DNA of 64,000 nucleotides from Syntrophobacterales bacterium (GTDB lineage: Bacteria > Desulfobacterota > Desulfobaccia > Desulfobaccales > 0-14-0-80-60-11). The stretch's first letter is position 1. Each line of letters opens with the position of its first letter. Below the pieces are notes generated by a model that searched no databases, was not told the origin of the DNA, and saw only the letters and a program-made list of their open reading frames with translations. The DNA is taken from positions 5,321 through 69,320 of the forward strand of contig JALNYP010000001.1 of NCBI GenBank assembly GCA_023229795.1, read 5' to 3'. Below are positions 10,494 to 50,025 of this stretch, piece by piece. The translations under genes were made by a program, and so were the position numbers.

Positions 10494-11579
10494 TCACGGC
10501 TTTGGCCCACCTTTTCCCGTCACCCGGGCGCCATATTGTTGCTGCAGAAAGTCGCGGTACACCTGGGAGCGCACCCGGTCCAGCCAATCCTGGTGAGACA
10601 GATACCAGGCAATAGTCCGCTTCAGCCCTGCCGCCAGAGTCACCCGGGGGCGCCACCCGAGCTGGGCCTGGATTTTATCGATGTTCAGGGCATACCGCCA
10701 GTCGTGGCCGGGCCGGTCCGGCACCAGGGTAATCAGCCGGGTCAGATCGCCCAGCCCCGGCCGCAGCTCCTGAAGCGAGTCGAGCAGCAGGCGCACGACG
10801 TCCAGGTTGGCCATCTCGCTTAAGCCGCCGATATTATAGGTTTCCCCCACCCTGCCCTGCTCCAAGACCTGGGCCAGGGCCTGGCAATGATCCTCCACAA
10901 AAAGCCAGTCCCGCACGTTGGTGCCCTGGCCGTAGATGGGAATGGGCTTGCCCTCCAGGGCCTGGCAGAGGCAGAAAGGGATCAGCTTTTCCGGGAACTG
11001 GTAAGGCCCGTAATTGTTGGTGCAATTGGTGACAAGCACCGGCAAGCCATAAGTATGGAAATAGGCGCGGGCCAGGAAGTCGGCGCCGGCCTTGGACGCG
11101 GCATAGGGGCTGCGAGGGGCGTAGGGCGCGGTCTCGGTGACCGGCGGATCGCCGGGCCCGAGGGAACCGTACACCTCATCGGTGCTGACGTGCAGGAAGC
11201 GGCAAGAGGAAGCCGCGGCGGGGTCTTTCCAGGCCTGGCGGGCCGCTTCCAACAGGGTGTGAGTCCCGATGACGTTGGTGCGCACAAAGACCCCCGGGTC
11301 CAGGATGGAGCGGTCCACGTGGGATTCGGCGGCAAAGTGCACCACCCGGGTGATGGGATACCGGGTAAAGAGGTCTTCAACCAGGGCCCGGTCGGCGATG
11401 TCACCCCGGACAAAGGTATAGCGGGCGTCGTCTTGAAAACCGCTCAGGCTTTCGAGGTTGCCGGCGTACGTCAGCAGGTCCAAATTCAGGAGATGCCAGT
11501 CCGGGTGCTCCTGTCTGAGGAAGTAAAGGAAATTGGCGCCGATAAAGCCGGCGCCGCCGGTTACCAGGACACAGGTCAT
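10494..11579 (-). CDS. rfbB: dTDP-glucose 4,6-dehydratase
   Basis: MTCVLVTGGAGFIGANF..., YAASKAGADFL (YxxxK), STDEVYG. An internal start was used; the upstream ORF extension is antisense-type Arg/Pro-rich sequence. There is an ATGA overlap with rfbD. Confidence 0.9.
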   Translation of the reverse strand: MTCVLVTGGAGFIGANFLYFLRQEHPDWHLLNLDLLTYAGNLESLSGFQDDARYTFVRGDIADRALVEDLFTRYPITRVVHFAAESHVDRSILDPGVFVRTNVIGTHTLLEAARQAWKDPAAASSCRFLHVSTDEVYGSLGPGDPPVTETAPYAPRSPYAASKAGADFLARAYFHTYGLPVLVTNCTNNYGPYQFPEKLIPFCLCQALEGKPIPIYGQGTNVRDWLFVEDHCQALAQVLEQGRVGETYNIGGLSEMANLDVVRLLLDSLQELRPGLGDLTRLITLVPDRPGHDWRYALNIDKIQAQLGWRPRVTLAAGLKRTIAWYLSHQDWLDRVRSQVYRDFLQQQYGARVTGKGGPKP

Positions 11580-12436
11580 AAGCGGTCCCCGTAGGCCTTC
11601 CAGAAGTCTTGGAAGGCGGCCTGCCAGGCCGGCATGAGGTCCAGTCCGGCCACCTGGAGGAGCCGGTTGGCCAACACCGAGTTGGCCGGACGCGGGGCCG
11701 GAAGTGGATATTCCGCCGTAGTACAAGGAGTCACCCGCAATTGGATGGCGGCCGTCTTTAGGATCAGGCAGGCGAAACCATACCAGGTCGTCTCGCCCTG
11801 GCAGGTGGCATGATAGGTGCCGAAGGCCTCGGTGCCGGCCAACGCCAGGAGCTGGCGGGCCAGGGCCGGCGCGCTGGTGGGCGTGCCCCGCTGATCGCAC
11901 ACCACCTTGAGCTCTCCGGACGGCCCGAGGCTGCGGGCCCGGGCCAAAATGGCGGTGACGAAGTTGGGACCGGGAAGGCCGTAGAGCCAGGCGGTGCGCA
12001 CGATGAAGTGGTCCGGGCATTGCTGCCGCACCCATTCTTCGCCCAGGAGTTTGCTGCGGCCATAGACCGACAGGGGGCCGGTGGCGTCCCATTCCTCATA
12101 GGGGCCGGGCTTGGCGCCATCGAAGACATAGTCGCTGGAGAGATGGATTAACTTCAGGCCCAACCGCCGGCAGGCCACCGCCAGATTCCGGGGCCCGAGG
12201 CTATTGACCTTGAGCGCCAGATCGGGGTTCGACTCCAGGTCGTCCACCAGGGTGGCGGCCGCGGCGTTGATCACCACGTCCGGGCGGCGTTGGGACAAGT
12301 GTCGCCATACCGCCTGGGGGTCGGTGACGTCCAAGTCGTGCAAGTCGGTGGCCACCACCTCCCAGCCCCGACGGCCTAATTCTTCAAGCAAGGCCCTACC
12401 CAACTGGCCCGATGCGCCGGTAATCAGTATCTTCAT
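11576..12436 (-). CDS. rfbD: dTDP-4-dehydrorhamnose reductase
   Basis: MKILITGASGQLG..., SSDYVFDG, YGRSKLLGE (YxxxK). Typical RmlD length. Confidence 0.85.
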   Translation of the reverse strand: MKILITGASGQLGRALLEELGRRGWEVVATDLHDLDVTDPQAVWRHLSQRRPDVVINAAAATLVDDLESNPDLALKVNSLGPRNLAVACRRLGLKLIHLSSDYVFDGAKPGPYEEWDATGPLSVYGRSKLLGEEWVRQQCPDHFIVRTAWLYGLPGPNFVTAILARARSLGPSGELKVVCDQRGTPTSAPALARQLLALAGTEAFGTYHATCQGETTWYGFACLILKTAAIQLRVTPCTTAEYPLPAPRPANSVLANRLLQVAGLDLMPAWQAAFQDFWKAYGDRL

Positions 12437-12605
12437 AATCTTTAATCGGTCAGCTTTCCCGCCTTCATCCATGACCCCTTTCCAAAGTGGAATACGGAGA
12501 ATTAAAATACCCTCCGCCTAACAAATCCATTCTAAATCTAATTCATCGGATATATTCACTATCCACTCCCGAATGGCGAAGCTTGGCTAAAGCTAAAACA
12601 AACAG

Positions 12606-13016
12606 TTACCAAGCTACCTTATACGGAACCGTGTCTGAAGCATCATAAGTCTCAGGTGAATATTCCAGAACTTGAGAATATTTGTTGGACCTATAGGCAT
12701 GAGCTACTTTCGGGCCTATAGTTAGCCTGTCTCCAGCCTGTACCAGCACCGTCTCCTTGATGCCGCTCTCAAGGTCCTCCAAAAGTAACTCCATTTCTCC
12801 TGACAATATATAGACGTGTTCTGTCTTTCTTTTGTGGTAGTGGTGCCCTCTTTCTTGTCCAGCTTTATCTAAATCCCAATATACCAAGTGCTTGTATGCC
12901 TCATTGGCGCGGTTTAAGATTTGAACCATTTCTCCTTTGTTTGAGAAAATTCTGCGCTCTGAATCGCCATTTCCATCTGTGGGAAGCTTTTCAATGTCAA
13001 CCTTGACTATTAACAT
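12606..13016 (-). CDS. Cupin-fold protein, FdtA/WxcM-like (possible dTDP-4-keto-6-deoxyhexose isomerase/epimerase)
   Basis: ERGHHYHKRKTEHVYILSGEMELLLEDLESG resembles the RGxHxHK...Q..x.L.G....L.D.G core of sugar 3,4-ketoisomerase cupins. A strong GGAGG RBS overlaps the stop of the upstream gene. AT-rich relative to the flanks. Confidence 0.6.
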   Translation of the reverse strand: MLIVKVDIEKLPTDGNGDSERRIFSNKGEMVQILNRANEAYKHLVYWDLDKAGQERGHHYHKRKTEHVYILSGEMELLLEDLESGIKETVLVQAGDRLTIGPKVAHAYRSNKYSQVLEYSPETYDASDTVPYKVAW

Positions 13017-13026
13017 AGCTTTCCTC

Positions 13027-14613
13027 CTATTCGAAAAATGAATTTTCGACTGCTTTAGACGACCCACAGCTATGAACCAAGCTGAGAACTGCTGCCGCTA
13101 GTGCCAATGGAACATAGTCCTTAATACCAGCTTTTATCTCCTCCGCTCTTTTATTCAGAGAATGCCTTTCTTTTGCTAATTTCTCCCTGCCAACTTCTCT
13201 CAAGAACCTAACAAAATCAGATGGCGTAAAGGGGATAGCTATGAACTTCTCCGATTCAAAAGAATCCTCAATACAACCTAATATATGTCGATAGCTTCGC
13301 TTGATCCTAACTTCACCAACTAGTCCGACTTCAAAAAAATGTGTCTCTCTTACTAAGGCTAAAAATACAATATCAGCCTCACTTACTTCTAATCCGGTTT
13401 CTTGTTTAATTTCACGAATGGCTGCGGCGAAAAATGGATTTGGAATAGTAGATGATGTATCCGGCTGCATATTAACCATCCCAGCCGAACCTGCTTGCCA
13501 ACTCTGCCAACAGTGCATAACCTTGCTTTGATTACGTTTTTGGATGACTAGACGTTCTGTCCCATCAGGTTCTTGTGTAATAATATTGATTGTAACAGTC
13601 AGAGGATTTGCTAAAAGAGAATCACTAAAGTTCGTAACAGATTTTTTTTCTACTTCTATGAGACCACTTCTTTTAATATTTTCTGTGAGAGATGATTCAA
13701 GTGCATGGTTAGTAGCTAAAAAAGTATAATAATCAGTAGATTGAAGCCTTAATTCTAATCCGCGGAAACCTTCTGTATCGTCACGCATAGGTTTAAAGTC
13801 TGTCAAACGTGCAAGCCGGCCATTATATAAGACTTGCGCTTTGTCCTTAGCAATCTTGATCTTCTCTTCCAGGACCTTATTGCATAACTGGCGAAGTTCC
13901 GAAGGTAAGCTTTTTAAAGTGTAGGAGGGGCGAGGCTTCCATCTATGGGTTATCATTCCTAATTTCCCATTATGATATTCATATAAGCCATCTCCCTCCA
14001 GTATAACAATAGGGATTTTTAATCTATCAAAAAAGTATGGAGTTATTGCTATTAATTCTTTGTTAATTGGAGTGGTTTTGATAGGGGAAACAATAGCTAT
14101 CGGGGCTATAGAAAATGCGCCTGCTAAATGACAACAATGAATAACCCCTTGCCATGTTGTCTCTATCCAAATGGGGATTGATAAATCAGAAGTGTGTACC
14201 TGGACTTCAAATTCGATCGTTAGCGCTATTTCCTCTTTATTGTTCTTCGTATTTGGGAGTCCACCTTCGAAATTATAGGTAAGGTATTTATCTCGTTTTC
14301 CTTCCGATTCGCGAATAGTTTTTTTAGCACTTTTAAGACTTGCCTTCCTGCCTCCACTTAATCCAAACAAGGATACACCAAAAGAACTTTCAACTTGCTT
14401 TTCTGAGGCAAGATTAGACCAACCTGAAAGCTGAGGGTTTTTAATAGTGAATTTGTTTGGGTCAAAGACAATAGATATCTTGAAGCGCCTTCCATAGTGG
14501 GTCAATCGCCTAAAACCCCGAGGAGAAGCAAAGGCAATAGAGATTGTTAATACAATATTGCCTTTAGAATCCTGAGATGCTTTTGTGAAGAATTGAATAT
14601 TGTTTGAATTCAT
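13027..14613 (-). CDS. Orphan 528-aa protein: unknown N-terminal domain plus C-terminal Nudix-like fold with a degenerate Nudix box
   Basis: Long uninterrupted ORF in AT-rich DNA. The C-terminal half contains ...FFAAAIREIKQETGLEV..., which matches REUxEExGU with E->Q. The upstream Glu of the box is missing. I recognise no family for residues 1-230. Confidence 0.7.
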   Translation of the reverse strand: MNSNNIQFFTKASQDSKGNIVLTISIAFASPRGFRRLTHYGRRFKISIVFDPNKFTIKNPQLSGWSNLASEKQVESSFGVSLFGLSGGRKASLKSAKKTIRESEGKRDKYLTYNFEGGLPNTKNNKEEIALTIEFEVQVHTSDLSIPIWIETTWQGVIHCCHLAGAFSIAPIAIVSPIKTTPINKELIAITPYFFDRLKIPIVILEGDGLYEYHNGKLGMITHRWKPRPSYTLKSLPSELRQLCNKVLEEKIKIAKDKAQVLYNGRLARLTDFKPMRDDTEGFRGLELRLQSTDYYTFLATNHALESSLTENIKRSGLIEVEKKSVTNFSDSLLANPLTVTINIITQEPDGTERLVIQKRNQSKVMHCWQSWQAGSAGMVNMQPDTSSTIPNPFFAAAIREIKQETGLEVSEADIVFLALVRETHFFEVGLVGEVRIKRSYRHILGCIEDSFESEKFIAIPFTPSDFVRFLREVGREKLAKERHSLNKRAEEIKAGIKDYVPLALAAAVLSLVHSCGSSKAVENSFFE

Positions 14614-14858
14614 AATTATAGGTTGAGTGACATAGGTTCCTATGAAAAGATATTTTCCGCCTTATAACGTTATATTTTATTATTACATAGAATAGCTCAT
14701 AGAACTGTCATACTTTGGGGGGGTATCTCAGAGAGGGGATTTGAATTTCCGTTAATATAGCAAACCCCCATAATATTTTAGCCGCTTCCCTGCCTATGCC
14801 CCCCCTCAAGGGAATGAATAAAGGCGAGCACATTTTATTAGTACTCGCGAGAAACGAT

Positions 14859-44312: not shown

Positions 44313-45344
44313 ATGCGACTAGATTTCCACTTTTATACGATCTATGTCCTGTCAAGAGTTGTGGGTTTCAGTCCGGATAACGCCTATGTCATAGCTTATG
44401 CTTCACAATATACGGATGATGAAGCTAGTGAGAATCCCATATTGTTCGAAAACGGCGGTGAGCTTGAACCAATCATTACGGCTCATCGGATTTTTGACCC
44501 GGGGGCAGTCACAGAGAGAATCTGTAAGAAGGTGTGGATTCCATTCCATTTTGTGCCTGGGAATTTAGGAATAGGTGATGAGCAAATGCTCACCAGAGCC
44601 AATAGTTCATTGACGCAAGCAATGATTAATGAATTGTTGAGTTACGATTTATTACCTTATAGCCGCCATCTTTTAGGCATTATGCTGCATGCCTATGCAG
44701 ATACCTGGTCACATCAAAATTTCATGGGCATGGTTAATGGAATGAATGAAGCTTCACAGCTGAGGGTGAATGGAGAAGATATTTGGCTCTATAACCTCGC
44801 ACCCGCCCTCGGCCATGCGCAAACCGGGGCTACGCCGGATGAACCGAGGCTGGAATGGGAATATCTTGATTATAAGGGTGAGCTTCATCGGGTGGCCAAT
44901 TATAATCGAGCTATAGAGGCGGCGCAAAATTGTCATAAGGTGCTATCTCAGTTCATTGATAAATTTGAGGATGACTTCCGTGATTCACAGTTCATTCCCT
45001 GGGAGCAGATTGCAGGGAAGATCATGGAGTTATTTCGAACACCAACCGATTTAGCGGGGTCCGTAACTGCTTGGGGAGAGGCCATTACTGCTAGTGAATT
45101 TGGATTTCAATCGCAAGGCAAAGATATCAATTTAATCTATGATGCCAGTGAATGGTTCAATGTGGCAATTAAATCTGAATCGATTCTAAATCAAGAATCA
45201 GGTCAATTCATAGAATGTTTTTTTAAAAATGATAATTATGAATCAAGTGACCTGAAGTATTTTAATGAGGCCGCGGGTTTTTATTGGTCTACTTTATTTA
45301 ATAATAACGCGGAGAGATTTGGTTTGAATAGTGCTTTGATTTAA
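44313..45344 (+). CDS. Hypothetical protein with His/Asp motifs reminiscent of the zinc phospholipase C / P1-nuclease fold (AT-rich insertion)
   Basis: 343-aa uninterrupted ORF in AT-rich DNA. Motifs FHFYTIYV...AYASQYTDD, IPFHFVPG, LHAYADTWSHQNF, LGHAQTGATPDEP. The family assignment is tentative. Confidence 0.65.
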   Translation: MRLDFHFYTIYVLSRVVGFSPDNAYVIAYASQYTDDEASENPILFENGGELEPIITAHRIFDPGAVTERICKKVWIPFHFVPGNLGIGDEQMLTRANSSLTQAMINELLSYDLLPYSRHLLGIMLHAYADTWSHQNFMGMVNGMNEASQLRVNGEDIWLYNLAPALGHAQTGATPDEPRLEWEYLDYKGELHRVANYNRAIEAAQNCHKVLSQFIDKFEDDFRDSQFIPWEQIAGKIMELFRTPTDLAGSVTAWGEAITASEFGFQSQGKDINLIYDASEWFNVAIKSESILNQESGQFIECFFKNDNYESSDLKYFNEAAGFYWSTLFNNNAERFGLNSALI

Positions 45345-45501
45345 CAAGGCCTATTAATATTTGCAAAGGGTCGGCAGGTTATTGACCGAACTGGATGAAG
45401 ATTTATCCTTGGAATGGTTATCGAGATAATTGAAAAGGCGGATTTTCGCCCACTCTTAATGGGAAAATGGTGCTCAGTGCGCACCCTACATAGATGCTCT
45501 T

Positions 45502-46740
45502 ATGATGCAAGGTGAGATCATTGCCACCGGCACGGAGTTGATTACCGGCCAGGTGGCTGACTGTAACACCCATTATGCCGCCCGGCGGTTGTTCGAGGCC
45601 GGCTTGGAGGTGGCGCGTTTCACCACAGTGGGCGATAAAGGTCCGCTGATCCGGGAAGTCCTGGAGCAGGCCATGAGCCGGTCGCAGTTTATCATTATTA
45701 CCGGCGGCCTGGGGCCCACCGAAGACGATGTCACCCTGCCGGCCGCGGCCCTGGCTCTAGATCGGCGCCTGGTGGTCCATGACGGCCTGTTGGACCGCAT
45801 TAAACGCTGTCTGGGGGCGCGGCAGATCCCCTGGGAGGAGCGCTATGCCGGACTGGCTCTGATCCCGGAAGGCGCGCAGCTTTTGGACCCGGGCGGCATG
45901 GCCTGCGGCTTTGCCGTGAAACATGAGGAAGTCCGCCTCTATTTCCTGCCCGGGGTCCCTCAGGAAATGCGGAGTCTGTTCGACGGCTTCGTGCTTCCCA
46001 ATTTGGTGGCCTGGGCCCAGCCGGAAGAATATTGGGTCCGGCGCACCCTGCGGCTGTTCGGAATTTCCGAAGGCCAGTTGCAGGGAGTAATCTGCCGGCG
46101 GCCGGAGTTTCAGCAGGGCGTGACCGTGGGGTATTACCCCCATTTTCCTGAAACCCACTTGAGTCTGACGCTGCGGGGGAAGGACCGCGCCGTGCTCAAT
46201 GCTAGCCTGGACCGCCTCACGGCTGCTCTGGGCGCAGAGGTGGGCGAAGCGCTGCTGGGGCCGGAGGAAGCCACCCTGGAAGAGCTGGTGGGCCGCCTGC
46301 TCAGGACGGGCGGGCTCACCGTGGCGGTGGCGGAGTCCTGCACCGGCGGCCTCATCGGCGACCGGCTCACCAACGTGCCCGGGTCTTCGGATTATTTTCT
46401 GGGCGGGGTGGTGAGTTACAGCAACGAGGCCAAGCACGATTTGCTGAAGGTGCCGCCGGAGGTCCTGGCCCAAAAGGGGGCGGTGAGCCCGGAGACCGCC
46501 GGGGACATGGCCCGGGGGGTCAGAGAAGTCTTTCATGCCGATATCGGGTTGGCGGTGACGGGTATCGCGGGCCCGAGCGGCGGCAGCCCGGCCAAACCCG
46601 TGGGCACCGTGTACATCGGCCTGGCCGACACCGAAGGCGAAGACGTCTGGCACTATCAGTTTTACGGCAACCGGACGGAGATCAAGACCCTGACGGCCCA
46701 GACCGCGTTGGACCGCCTGCGCCGGAAGTTGAAAACGTAG
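45502..46740 (+). CDS. cinA: CinA: MoCF-binding domain plus nicotinamide-nucleotide amidohydrolase (PncC) domain
   Basis: EIIATGTELITGQVADCNT..., ITGGLGPTEDD, ESCTGGL..., GIAGPSGG. Confidence 0.9.
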   Translation: MMQGEIIATGTELITGQVADCNTHYAARRLFEAGLEVARFTTVGDKGPLIREVLEQAMSRSQFIIITGGLGPTEDDVTLPAAALALDRRLVVHDGLLDRIKRCLGARQIPWEERYAGLALIPEGAQLLDPGGMACGFAVKHEEVRLYFLPGVPQEMRSLFDGFVLPNLVAWAQPEEYWVRRTLRLFGISEGQLQGVICRRPEFQQGVTVGYYPHFPETHLSLTLRGKDRAVLNASLDRLTAALGAEVGEALLGPEEATLEELVGRLLRTGGLTVAVAESCTGGLIGDRLTNVPGSSDYFLGGVVSYSNEAKHDLLKVPPEVLAQKGAVSPETAGDMARGVREVFHADIGLAVTGIAGPSGGSPAKPVGTVYIGLADTEGEDVWHYQFYGNRTEIKTLTAQTALDRLRRKLKT

Positions 46741-47720: not shown

Positions 47721-48121
47721 GAGTTCTCCTGGACACCAACGTCATCGTCAGCGCGGTTGCGACCCGGGGGCTGTGCGCCGACGTCTTTCGTGCGGTTCTA
47801 GCAGCACATGAACTAGTCACCTGTCCACAGGTTCTTCAGGAGGTCCGGCGCATCTTGAGTATGAAGTTCGGGGTCCCGGAACCGTTGATCGCGGAATATC
47901 TGGAACTTATCGGGCAAGAAGCCATCGTGGCCGAGCCTGAAGACTTGCCGGACCTCCCCATCCAGGACCGGGATGACGCGCCCATCGTCGCGGCGGCCAT
48001 CGCCGCCCGGGCGCAGGTCCTGGTTACCGGCGATCACGAGCTGCAAGGCCTCAAGAACATCGAGCAACTAAGGATTATTTCCCCGAGGGCGTTCTGGGAA
48101 GAACTAACGGCCCAGGAATAA
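47717..48121 (+). CDS. PIN-domain toxin (type II TA)
   Basis: MRVLLDTNVIVSAV..., DRDDAPIVAAAI..., LVTGD are the acidic PIN residues. Confidence 0.8.
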   Translation: MRVLLDTNVIVSAVATRGLCADVFRAVLAAHELVTCPQVLQEVRRILSMKFGVPEPLIAEYLELIGQEAIVAEPEDLPDLPIQDRDDAPIVAAAIAARAQVLVTGDHELQGLKNIEQLRIISPRAFWEELTAQE

Positions 48122-48195
48122 AGGTTTGGCAGGGTGCGTCTTACGCACCATTGCAGAAGTCTCGGACATGGCGATCGCGTTATGGTGCTTCAAGC

Positions 48196-48380
48196 CGCAC
48201 CTCACCCTGGGCCGGGTGAAATCCCCGATGAACCGGGAGAAACTGGCCCGGATGCTGGAGAAGATGCCGCCGGTGGACTGGCCGCCCTTTGCGGTGAAGC
48301 AGTTGATCCTGTTTCAGAGCGTGTTGTCGCCGCAAGGGTCGAAATATACGCCGTTGAAGGCGATTCCCTTGGGGAGATAA
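48196..48380 (+). pseudogene. Orphan duplicate of the 3' end of thpR
   Basis: It encodes PHLTLGRVKSPMNREKLARMLEKMPPVDWPPFAVKQLILFQSVLSPQGSKYTPLKAIPLGR. By hand alignment it has 19 substitutions over 59 codons relative to 47208-47395, 14 of them synonymous. There is no 5' part of the gene. Confidence 0.85.
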
Positions 48381-48413
48381 TCGAGGCATGGTAGCCGCAG
48401 GCTTTAGAAAATC

Positions 48414-48628
48414 ATAGGGCGGCCCTTGGCCGCCGAAAAGAATTGGCGTGCAGGGCACGCCCTACATGGCTGTTCCGGGCACAGGCTGGAAAGCCTGTGC
48501 TACCAACAGCATTTTTTTCTGGTTCCCAAGCTGGGCTGGGAACCCTATTGAGTGCAGAGCTATGCTTTGCGAAATATTTCGGCCCGTTAGCCAAACTACG
48601 ATTTCCCAAGCAAAGCTTGGGAACGAGG
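48414..48628. repeat. Cluster of at least five REP-like hairpins from three dispersed families
   Basis: TAGGGCGGCCcttGGCCGCC, GGCGTGCagGGCACGCCCTAC, GCACAGGCTggaaAGCCTGTGC, GGTTCCCAgctgggcTGGGAACC and TTCCCAAGCaaaGCTTGGGAA, back to back. Confidence 0.8.
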
Positions 48629-48640
48629 AAAACCGATAAC

Positions 48641-48996
48641 GTGGAATTCCTTAAGACTATAGCAATAATTGTAGGAGTTATGGTTAGCGTAATAGGTATA
48701 ATGGGCGGAATTTTTTCTTTGCCAAATAGTTATAGGCGCTTTAGAAAAGGATTTTATCCACATGGTGAAAAGGGTACAGGTTCTATTGTACTATCCAAAA
48801 AAATAATAAATGAAAGACAGTTTGTAACTTTCCTTGTTATTGAAGATATTTTTCAATTTATTAAAGCATTTCTTCAACCAAAGGAATGGGGAGGGGAATT
48901 TGAATCAATAGAAAAAATTGGAGAATATTATAAAATAGTAATTTCCTATCCGAAAGAAAAAGAATTCAATTTCTATATAACCAAGGGGAACAAAAA

Positions 48997-49000
<4 letters not shown>
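48641..49000 (+). CDS. Small AT-rich membrane-anchored hypothetical protein, stop overlapping the recA start
   Basis: GTG start with a [33 protein letters not shown] (one TM helix) followed by a Lys/Glu-rich domain. The ATGA overlap with recA falls at 48997-49000. Codon composition is unlike the flanks. Confidence 0.5.

Positions 49001-50025
<1,025 letters not shown>

Follow-up and report, generated by a model that had tools for sequence, protein, structure and literature searches.

We analysed a window of 64,000 nucleotides (nt) from a Syntrophobacterales bacterium (contig JALNYP010000001.1), in which an AT-rich island of two genes lies within a short operon of dTDP-sugar (rfb) genes (Table 1). 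The island encodes a protein of 528 amino acids (aa) and, directly downstream, a small cupin. Our central observation is that the C-terminal part of the 528-aa protein is predicted to share its fold with the human Nudix enzyme NUDT22. This NUDT22-like core belongs to a rare bacterial family whose members exchange their N-terminal regions, among them effector domains of known defence systems.

A low-G+C gene pair inside an rfb operon

The original prediction had read from the sequence a sharp drop in base composition, five co-oriented genes and a 10-nt gap with a ribosome-binding site overlapping a stop codon. Each of these readings held, all five genes being on the minus strand. The guanine-plus-cytosine (G+C) content of positions 12473-14858 was 0.396, compared to 0.607 ± 0.031 across all other stretches of 2386 nt (z = −6.9). 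The minimum among those was 0.515, which makes the island the lowest stretch in the 64 kb. G+C at third codon positions was 0.31 in the 528-aa gene and 0.44 in the cupin gene, compared to 0.74-0.87 in rfbB, rfbD, the rfbC-like gene, the major facilitator superfamily (MFS) transporter gene and hemL. The rfbD-rfbB flank (10494..12436) had a G+C content of 0.64-0.66. Both genes are thus compositionally foreign and form a linked pair, which recurs outside a visible rfb context at a second locus (L001, below). The TAG stop of the 528-aa open reading frame (ORF) occupies 13029-13027, the cupin ATG follows 10 nt on, and a GGAGGA ribosome-binding site overlaps the stop (TAGGAGGAAAGCTATG). From base frequencies, we estimate the chance of an open frame of 528 codons in DNA of 39% G+C at ~5e-16.

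Table 1. Features of the island and its flanks, in window coordinates
Feature	Coordinates	Strand	Description
rfbB	10494-11555	minus	Pfam GDP_Man_Dehyd/Epimerase 3e-78; host-like composition
rfbD	11576-12436	minus	Pfam RmlD_sub_bind 3e-96; host-like composition
Intergenic, cupin/rfbD	12437..12605	minus	G+C 0.406 for 12473-12605; length varies among relatives
Cupin gene, 136 aa	12606-13016	minus	Sugar 3,4-ketoisomerase-like fold; HxH…E…H motif
Spacer between 528-aa gene and cupin	13017..13026	minus	10 nt, read from sequence
528-aa gene	13027-14613	minus	Intact ORF, G+C 0.386; orphan N-terminal domain, hydrophobic helix and NUDT22-like Nudix core
3' end of 528-aa ORF (…KAVENSFFE)	13032..13066	minus	Decayed copy upstream of the cupin in relatives without the gene
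NUDT22-like core, aa 190-528	13030..14046	minus	Beta-rich subdomain, then Nudix domain, then C-terminal helical part (AlphaFold2, Foldseek, profile)
Nudix-box helix R400-E401-I-K-Q404-E405-T-G407-L	13390..13416	minus	Aligns with NUDT22 QEICDEVN
Hydrophobic segment, aa 156-178 (VIHCCHLAGAFSIAPIAIV)	14080..14148	minus	Kyte-Doolittle 19-residue mean 1.9, borderline
N-terminal orphan domain, about aa 1-150	14164..14613	minus	Predicted rich in beta strands
AT-rich intergenic, rfbC-like/528-aa gene	14614..14858	minus	245 nt, G+C 0.388
rfbC-like gene, 165 aa	14859-15356	minus	Short divergent RmlC-like cupin; host-like composition, G+C 0.62; syntenic in L013, L017, L034, L035

The 245-nt region upstream of the 528-aa gene stands where syntenic relatives have an rfbC-like-to-cupin spacer of ~150 nt. 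No promoter-like or terminator-like sites above chance were found in the AT-rich spacers. An Rfam search of the same spacers gave no match at E ≤ 1, a result that speaks against a structured RNA there. The ATG of the 528-aa gene has no visible Shine-Dalgarno sequence ahead of it (14614-14640), and a TATAAT hexamer lies one base upstream. We observed no direct or inverted repeats beyond chance at the island borders, no tRNA genes in the whole 64-kb window and no integrase among the island's neighbours. These results speak against a site-specific insertion of the island, and homologous recombination is the likely route of exchange.

Gene calls and Pfam place the island in a four-gene rfb mini-operon amid housekeeping genes, and not in the variable polysaccharide locus that had been proposed. 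The neighbours of the mini-operon encode sigma-54 two-component regulators, an M50-like membrane protein, an MFS transporter, HemL and a siroheme-decarboxylase-type regulator. The rfbC-like product matches Pfam dTDP_sugar_isom (1.1e-10); its score against TIGR01221, the RmlC equivalog model, is 17.7, compared to a cut-off of 155.75. rfbA (glucose-1-phosphate thymidylyltransferase) is absent from the operon, and neither a DegT-type aminotransferase nor an acyltransferase was found in it by gene calls and Pfam. The pathway encoded here may be other than ordinary dTDP-L-rhamnose synthesis.

A NUDT22-like core with exchanged N-termini

A word-based search of 5.8 billion proteins returned a single relative of the 528-aa protein, P0002. 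When 1.84 billion representatives were scanned exhaustively with phmmer, 174 matched at E ≤ 1e-3, and all of these, except the fragment P0046, align to residues ~190-475. The only close relatives are P0002-P0005; an identical copy of the gene is present in L002. No relative was found on viral contigs in IMG/VR, and matches in a viral structure library were confined to generic Nudix domains, results that speak against a phage origin.

We modelled the protein with AlphaFold2 on the family alignment and obtained a predicted local distance difference test score (pLDDT) above 90 for residues 190-528. A Foldseek search with this core placed five human NUDT22 chains on top (E 1e-11; template modelling score (TM) 0.65-0.69, normalised to NUDT22). 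The alignments run over 321-332 columns of the 282-301-residue NUDT22 chains and cover both subdomains, including the extra beta-rich domain that precedes the Nudix domain. Many Nudix structures were matched at a probability of 1.00, and single-domain Nudix enzymes fell far behind NUDT22. A profile of 34 family members also matched human NUDT22 in the PDB (E 6e-8, chain residues 72-308). The Pfam NUDIX model, by comparison, matches the 528-aa protein weakly (E 0.022); 40 of 149 family representatives match it (reporting thresholds of E ≤ 0.01 in one scan and E ≤ 0.001 in another). The protein had been described as an orphan. That description fails for the C-terminal 340 residues on the phmmer, profile and Foldseek results, and it stands for residues 1-185 save for the P0046 match.

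NUDT22 does not carry a standard Nudix box (PMC5688067) and converts UDP-glucose to UMP and glucose-1-phosphate (PMC10101856). In the profile alignment, its QEICDE segment corresponds to R400-E401-I-K-Q404-E405 of the 528-aa protein, and the two Nudix-helix glutamates line up. Compared to the Nudix box GX5EX7REUXEEXGU, E401, E405 and G407 are kept, and the upstream G and E are not alignable. Among 150 family representatives, E405 is kept in 148/148, R360 in 145/148 and E453 in 140/145; E401 is present in 112 and R400 in 118. At position 404, 124 have E and 17 of 148 have Q, the 528-aa protein being among the latter. Because the catalytic-helix glutamates are near-invariant in the family and present here, the Nudix module looks like an active hydrolase and not a dead sensor.

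Residues 1-185 have no match in Pfam, NCBIfam or PADLOC, and a separate search with these residues alone found nothing. The N-terminal domain has a single homolog, P0046, a fragment of 104 aa (35% identity over aa 1-98) and an independent sequence with which the start codon and the N-terminus of the 528-aa protein agree. Judged by its hydropathy, the segment at aa 156-178 may span the membrane or serve as a linker helix; P0002 and P0003 have instead two clear transmembrane helices at the N-terminus.

The five closest members, the window protein included, share 49-63% identity in the core and differ in what precedes it: two transmembrane helices in P0002 and P0003, a TIR domain in P0004 and P0005, and the orphan domain in the window protein. 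Some 170 more distant relatives likewise hold the core and exchange the N-terminus. Pfam fusions across the family include TIR, TIR_2, ThsB_TIR, SIR2_2, PNP_UDP_1, PRTase-CE, HD-CE, CHAT and DUF4062, and there are further fusions to protein kinases, Xre-type helix-turn-helix (HTH) domains, methyltransferases and transmembrane helices. A nucleoside-deoxyribosyltransferase-like N-terminal domain in the family matches a PADLOC TIR effector model of the CBASS-effector type. In characterised defence systems, TIR, SIR2, PNP, CHAT and paired transmembrane helices serve as effector modules. Other members are joined to enzymes unrelated to immunity: P0035 appears to have methyltransferase domains at both ends, and P0053 has a long C-terminal region that appears by eye to be adenylate-forming (CapK / coenzyme F390 synthetase-like).

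Among the homologs, PADLOC defence models match the fused TIR or TIR-like N-termini. PDC-S66, a candidate defence model, also has matches in three of 34 family members (best E 3.7e-14); if this match lies in the NUDT22-like core, the family has already been flagged as a defence candidate. The identification of the window pair as a known defence system was rejected, both proteins being without a PADLOC match and the homolog matches comprising TIR-type N-termini and the three to PDC-S66.

We inspected ~25 homolog neighbourhoods. In this small sample, the family genes adjoin a PIN toxin-antitoxin pair (L001, L010), an Xre HTH gene (L004), and a ParB-like gene, read by eye, with a transposase (L005). 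The last of these loci (L005:5000-14000, from a Desulfatiglandales metagenome-assembled genome) holds a TIR-like-NUDT22-like gene (507 aa) within a low-G+C stretch. Near it, Pfam identified a radical-SAM protein, and by eye we recognised, besides the ParB-like gene, an IS200/Y1-type transposase-like gene, a Gfo/Idh/MocA-like oxidoreductase gene and a eukaryote-type UDP-glucose pyrophosphorylase-like gene. The closeness of a UDP-glucose-forming enzyme to a NUDT22-like gene is suggestive.

The cupin, its recurrence and a relic in syntenic relatives

The original prediction had called the cupin FdtA/WxcM-like, and at the level of fold this is borne out. Its sequence matches Pfam Cupin_2 (4.9e-8), and its full-length matches to the ketoisomerases are weak (Pfam FdtA 2e-5; PDB 2PA7 1.5e-4). 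AlphaFold2 predicts a single-domain barrel (pLDDT 91) within the size range of 3,4-ketoisomerases (about 135-140 residues). Foldseek gave QdtA, FdtA, FdtD, WlaRA/RB and HCAN_0198 as top matches over the full length (TM 0.63-0.74), and almost all of the top 30 matches were 3,4-ketoisomerases. The sequence adds a feature to this picture, namely a complete His/His/Glu/His metal motif (H60-x-H62-x4-E67…H107), which aligns with the metal ligands of the quercetinase QueD. The three histidines are conserved throughout, and residue 67 is either E or D. Cupin homologs form at least 88 clusters at 50-88% identity. Two more distant homologs lie away from sugar genes, L037:6001-6417 (66% identity, low-G+C organism) and L038:6001-6420 (53%, 72%-G+C organism). 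One of these is by histidine-kinase and response-regulator genes; the other begins 46 nt after a UvrD-type helicase gene, among Pfam-less proteins.

Cupins neighbour four of the five closest family members. In L001, P0002 is followed directly by a cupin 61% identical to that of the window and then by a VapBC-like PIN toxin-antitoxin pair, on a contig of 3.2 kb that shows no rfb gene. In L004, an Xre HTH gene overlaps the start of the gene for P0004, giving an HTH-TIR-Nudix arrangement. Three cupin-type genes in a row (L004:2365-3923) are convergent with this Xre-HTH and TIR-NUDT22-like operon, with 11 nt between the convergent stops. They encode an RmlC-like protein of 188 aa (32% identical to that of the window), a weak cupin of 109 aa and a cupin of 159 aa, the last with 30% identity to the window cupin (E 2e-18). 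P0005 has a divergently oriented cupin gene 0.5 kb away, and P0003 has no cupin neighbour at its locus. An obligate partnership across the family was rejected, given that no cupin was found near the distant members at ~20 loci.

We then compared the locus with five syntenic relatives (L013, L017, L034, L035 and L036), all of which lack the 528-aa gene. L017 has the order hemL-MFS-218aa-rfbC-like-cupin-rfbD-rfbB-histidine kinase-sigma-54 regulator, and the other four span parts of it. Between the window and the relatives, the flanks were 68-76% and the cupin 76-83% identical in DNA sequence. Four of the relatives form one clade (85-93% amino-acid identity to one another), to which the window is an outgroup at 67-75%; the amino-acid identity of the cupins between the window and the relatives was 74-88%. 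In the relatives, the cupin is conserved at its position with an intermediate G+C of 0.46-0.52, compared to 0.62-0.67 for its neighbours. Third-codon-position identity was 61-73% in the cupin, compared to 47-57% in the rfbC-like gene and rfbD, which indicates that the cupins share a more recent ancestor than the flanks. Together with the intermediate cupin G+C, these identities point to a cupin exchange that took place after the hosts had diverged.

The relatives keep a trace of the missing gene. We compared the spacer upstream of their cupin with the 3' end of the 528-aa ORF, ungapped and anchored on the cupin ATG (spacer positions −50 to −16; 100000 shuffles). Identity was 24/35 in L034 (0/100000 shuffles reaching the observed value), 19/35 in L035 (14/100000), 16/35 in L013 (691/100000) and 14/35 in L017 (4368/100000). 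In the frame of the ORF, the relic peptides read KVIENAFIDW, KVIKNPCID* and KGIEDTLID*, compared to KAVENSFFE* in the window and the family C-terminal motif (V/I)E-x-AF (asterisks are stops). The relic stop codon in L035 and L013 is at the same position as that of the window. The relic is in register, so the ancestor of the relatives' clade carried a NUDT22-like gene ahead of the cupin, at the same spacing, and later deleted it. On this relic we rejected an origin in which one gene alone had entered, de novo, an ancestral operon with the rfbC-like gene next to the cupin. The low third-position G+C of the window copy, the younger cupin and the presence of the pair elsewhere (L001) fit repeated exchange of the pair at the rfb locus, followed by loss of the Nudix gene.

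In L013:3195-3608, and also in L014-L016, the cupin reading frame is interrupted by a stop at codon 11 (AMLTTKVTIE*L). In this lineage the called product is only 107 aa long (P0158, found on 12 contigs). This cupin may be decaying or may use a downstream start.

Two other stretches of the window depart from its usual composition. A second G+C dip at 44313-46740 (~0.50, compared to 0.60) holds a gene for a DUF6765 protein (343 aa, E 3e-70) and a CinA-family gene. Positions 48001-49000 have a G+C content of ~0.47 and hold a 185-aa ORF (48443-49000) without a Pfam match, whose stop overlaps the start of recA (48997-50025).

Interpretation and comparison with known systems

The reading we favour, at a probability of about 0.45, is that the 528-aa protein couples a Nudix module that would cleave or sense a nucleoside diphosphate (NDP)-sugar to an exchangeable, conflict-type output domain. 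The island would then be a horizontally circulating two-gene cassette. Residues 190-528 would act as a NUDT22-type pyrophosphatase, converting a pyrimidine NDP-sugar to a nucleoside monophosphate and a sugar-1-phosphate. The likely substrate would be the dTDP-4-keto-6-deoxyhexose from RfbB, or an isomer of it made by the cupin, which would supply or share the NDP-ketosugar ligand. The variable N-terminus would serve as an exchangeable output or localisation module, in an architecture like that of nucleotide-sensing immune effectors. The cassette would be lodged in the rfbC-like/rfbD/rfbB operon because it uses the chemistry of that operon, and would be exchanged between lineages there. The Nudix gene would be dispensable, sister lineages having deleted it and kept the cupin.

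This reading departs from the earlier suggestion that the 528-aa protein helps to divert the rhamnose pathway to a new deoxysugar. That role is unlikely for a predicted NUDT22-type pyrophosphatase, which would cleave an NDP-sugar and not build one. Nor does the cupin need the 528-aa protein, as it persists alone in the operon of the relatives. The alternative offered by the original prediction, an unrelated acquired module of defence type, fares better in its second half: the TIR, SIR2, PNP and CHAT fusions are real, if indirect, evidence for it, and "unrelated" fits poorly with a sugar-type cupin link that recurs in four of the five closest members.

Several observations weigh against the reading we favour. 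The cupin carries the complete set of metal ligands seen in the metal-dependent QueD. FdtA-type ketoisomerases are not known to use a metal, FdtA having its catalytic pair His49/His51 in a metal-free active site, and a sugar-isomerase function of the cupin is therefore only putative. The pairing is not obligatory, in that the cupin remains in the operon without the Nudix gene in at least five relatives, and more distant cupin homologs occur without a Nudix gene and outside sugar operons. In the other direction, ~20 more distant family loci have no such cupin neighbour, and their contexts are heterogeneous; stand-alone members in Bacillaceae adjoin teichoic-acid, phosphonate and nucleobase-permease genes. 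PADLOC-DB v2 gave no match for the 528-aa protein, its core or the cupin, and the window neighbourhood is one of housekeeping genes and not a defence island. Within the 528-aa protein, a Gln (Q404) takes the place of the first Glu in the EE pair of the Nudix box, and the N-terminal domain was not modellable (pLDDT < 50 for residues 1-184).

The main rival, which we consider somewhat less probable, is that the gene is a purely metabolic accessory. The protein would be a membrane-associated NDP-sugar pyrophosphatase that trims or proofreads the dTDP-sugar pool, for example by removing dead-end keto-sugars or throttling the rhamnose supply, with an N-terminal domain that anchors or regulates it and with no role in conflict. 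In this it would be like the Nudix enzyme Gmm/WcaH. The NUDT22 homology with conserved catalytic residues agrees with such a role, as does a co-oriented gene spaced 10 nt from one for a sugar-isomerase-like cupin inside a dTDP-sugar operon. RmlC-like or cupin neighbours in four of the five closest homologs, the cell-wall, phosphonate and nucleobase-transport context of distant stand-alone members, a GDP-mannose mannosyl hydrolase among the structural matches and the methyltransferase fusions of some family members also speak for it. What a metabolic accessory leaves unexplained are the TIR and paired-transmembrane N-termini of the closest homologs and the SIR2, PNP and CHAT fusions. The gene is, moreover, very rare and patchy (174 representatives in 1.84 billion), compositionally foreign and dispensable in sister lineages, and in L001 the pair sits by a toxin-antitoxin module with no rfb gene in view.

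It is rather improbable, in our assessment, that the 528-aa gene is a decaying hitch-hiker, functionless in its host, which came with the cupin by homologous recombination and is heading for deletion. The relatives have indeed lost the gene and kept only the relic, and in the L013 lineage even the cupin frame is interrupted. That no ribosome-binding site is visible before the ATG, that no promoter-like site was found on the strand of the gene and that a Gln stands in place of a Nudix-box Glu also fit decay. Against this, the 1587-nt frame has stayed open although stops are frequent in AT-rich DNA; the other conserved core residues are all kept; the start and the N-terminus match an independent fragment; and the spacing for translational coupling to the cupin is preserved. 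Least probable is a toxin-immunity pair, with the 528-aa protein as a toxin (by a membrane-active N-terminus or by NDP-sugar depletion) and the cupin as an antidote that would, for example, remove an activating ligand: the tight two-gene arrangement, the effector-type N-termini of homologs and the toxin-antitoxin and Xre HTH genes beside them suit it, but the cupin occurs much more widely than the putative toxin, persists on its own, lies on the other strand in L004 and for P0005, and is not near most family members.

A bolder extension of the reading we favour is, to our mind, unlikely. On this view, the NUDT22-like module would mark out a class of prokaryotic immune or conflict proteins, not described before, which read out or destroy a nucleotide-sugar in place of a cyclic nucleotide. 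A constant Nudix module would be wired to killing domains (TIR, SIR2, PNP, CHAT, two transmembrane helices, the orphan domain), with a metal-cupin partner that makes or edits the ligand in one clade, and the orphan domain would be a new effector fold.

NUDT22 has so far been treated as an odd outlier of the human Nudix enzymes. Our data show a bacterial family with the same two-domain core, which is rare, mobile and repeatedly fused to effector domains of known immune systems. Should the core turn out to sense or cleave a nucleotide-sugar, the small molecules of bacterial conflict or immunity would come to include sugar nucleotides, and NUDT22 would gain a plausible source in evolution. On the ordinary metabolic reading, too, the locus offers a clean natural experiment, the same operon occurring with the Nudix gene, without it and with a relic only, and it offers a testable pairing of a Nudix pyrophosphatase and a metal-cupin on dTDP-ketosugars.

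Each part of the cassette belongs to a known superfamily. We found no description of the bacterial NUDT22-like family, its immune-effector fusions or the cupin pairing in the searchable literature, which takes in few subscription journals, or in Pfam, NCBIfam and PADLOC. The closest characterised protein is human NUDT22 itself (PDB 5LF9, 5LOR, 5LOU), a UDP-glucose/UDP-galactose pyrophosphatase with which the 528-aa protein shares the two-domain fold, the profile match and the Nudix-helix glutamates. Identity is 16-18%, and the 528-aa protein has an extra N-terminal region of 190 residues, while the helical part at its C-terminus is longer. It comes from bacteria and is horizontally mobile, whereas NUDT22 is a stand-alone cytosolic salvage enzyme (PMC10101856).

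A 2TM-NUDIX protein has been described as a defence effector associated with SMODS/CBASS and UG23 reverse transcriptases (PMC9226505). Compared by its described architecture, its two N-terminal transmembrane helices and C-terminal NUDIX domain recall P0002 and P0003. The core studied here differs in being of the larger NUDT22 type and in having no PADLOC CBASS match, and no SMODS cyclase or reverse transcriptase lies by the 528-aa gene or the examined homologs.

The cupin resembles the dTDP-sugar 3,4-ketoisomerases FdtA, QdtA, WlaRA/RB and FdtD over the full length of its fold and in an HxH pair on the same strand. Its gene, too, lies near rfbB, whose product makes the substrate of those enzymes. 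It shares 16-21% identity with them and differs by its complete metal motif. Typical Fdt/Qdt clusters combine RmlA/RmlB with a sugar aminotransferase and an acyltransferase; neither of the latter follows the window cupin, and some cupin homologs lie outside sugar contexts.

Gmm/WcaH/NudD, the GDP-mannose mannosyl hydrolase, is a Nudix enzyme in the colanic-acid cluster that hydrolyses the NDP-sugar of its own pathway. It offers a precedent for a Nudix protein encoded inside a sugar-nucleotide operon and is a Foldseek match of the core (rank 10). It differs in having a single small Nudix domain and no N-terminal module, in being neither NUDT22-like nor mobile, and in using a GDP-sugar.

In overall design, the family resembles the SIR2/TM-SLOG proteins of the ThsA type, TIR-SAVED and the Pycsar TIR/TM proteins with a cNMP-binding domain, in that a nucleotide-binding module stays constant and is coupled to TIR, SIR2 or transmembrane effectors that can be swapped. 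Compared to these, the family has no signal-producing cyclase or TIR partner, its constant module keeps catalytic residues and so looks like an enzyme more than a passive sensor, and its recurrent partner is a cupin.

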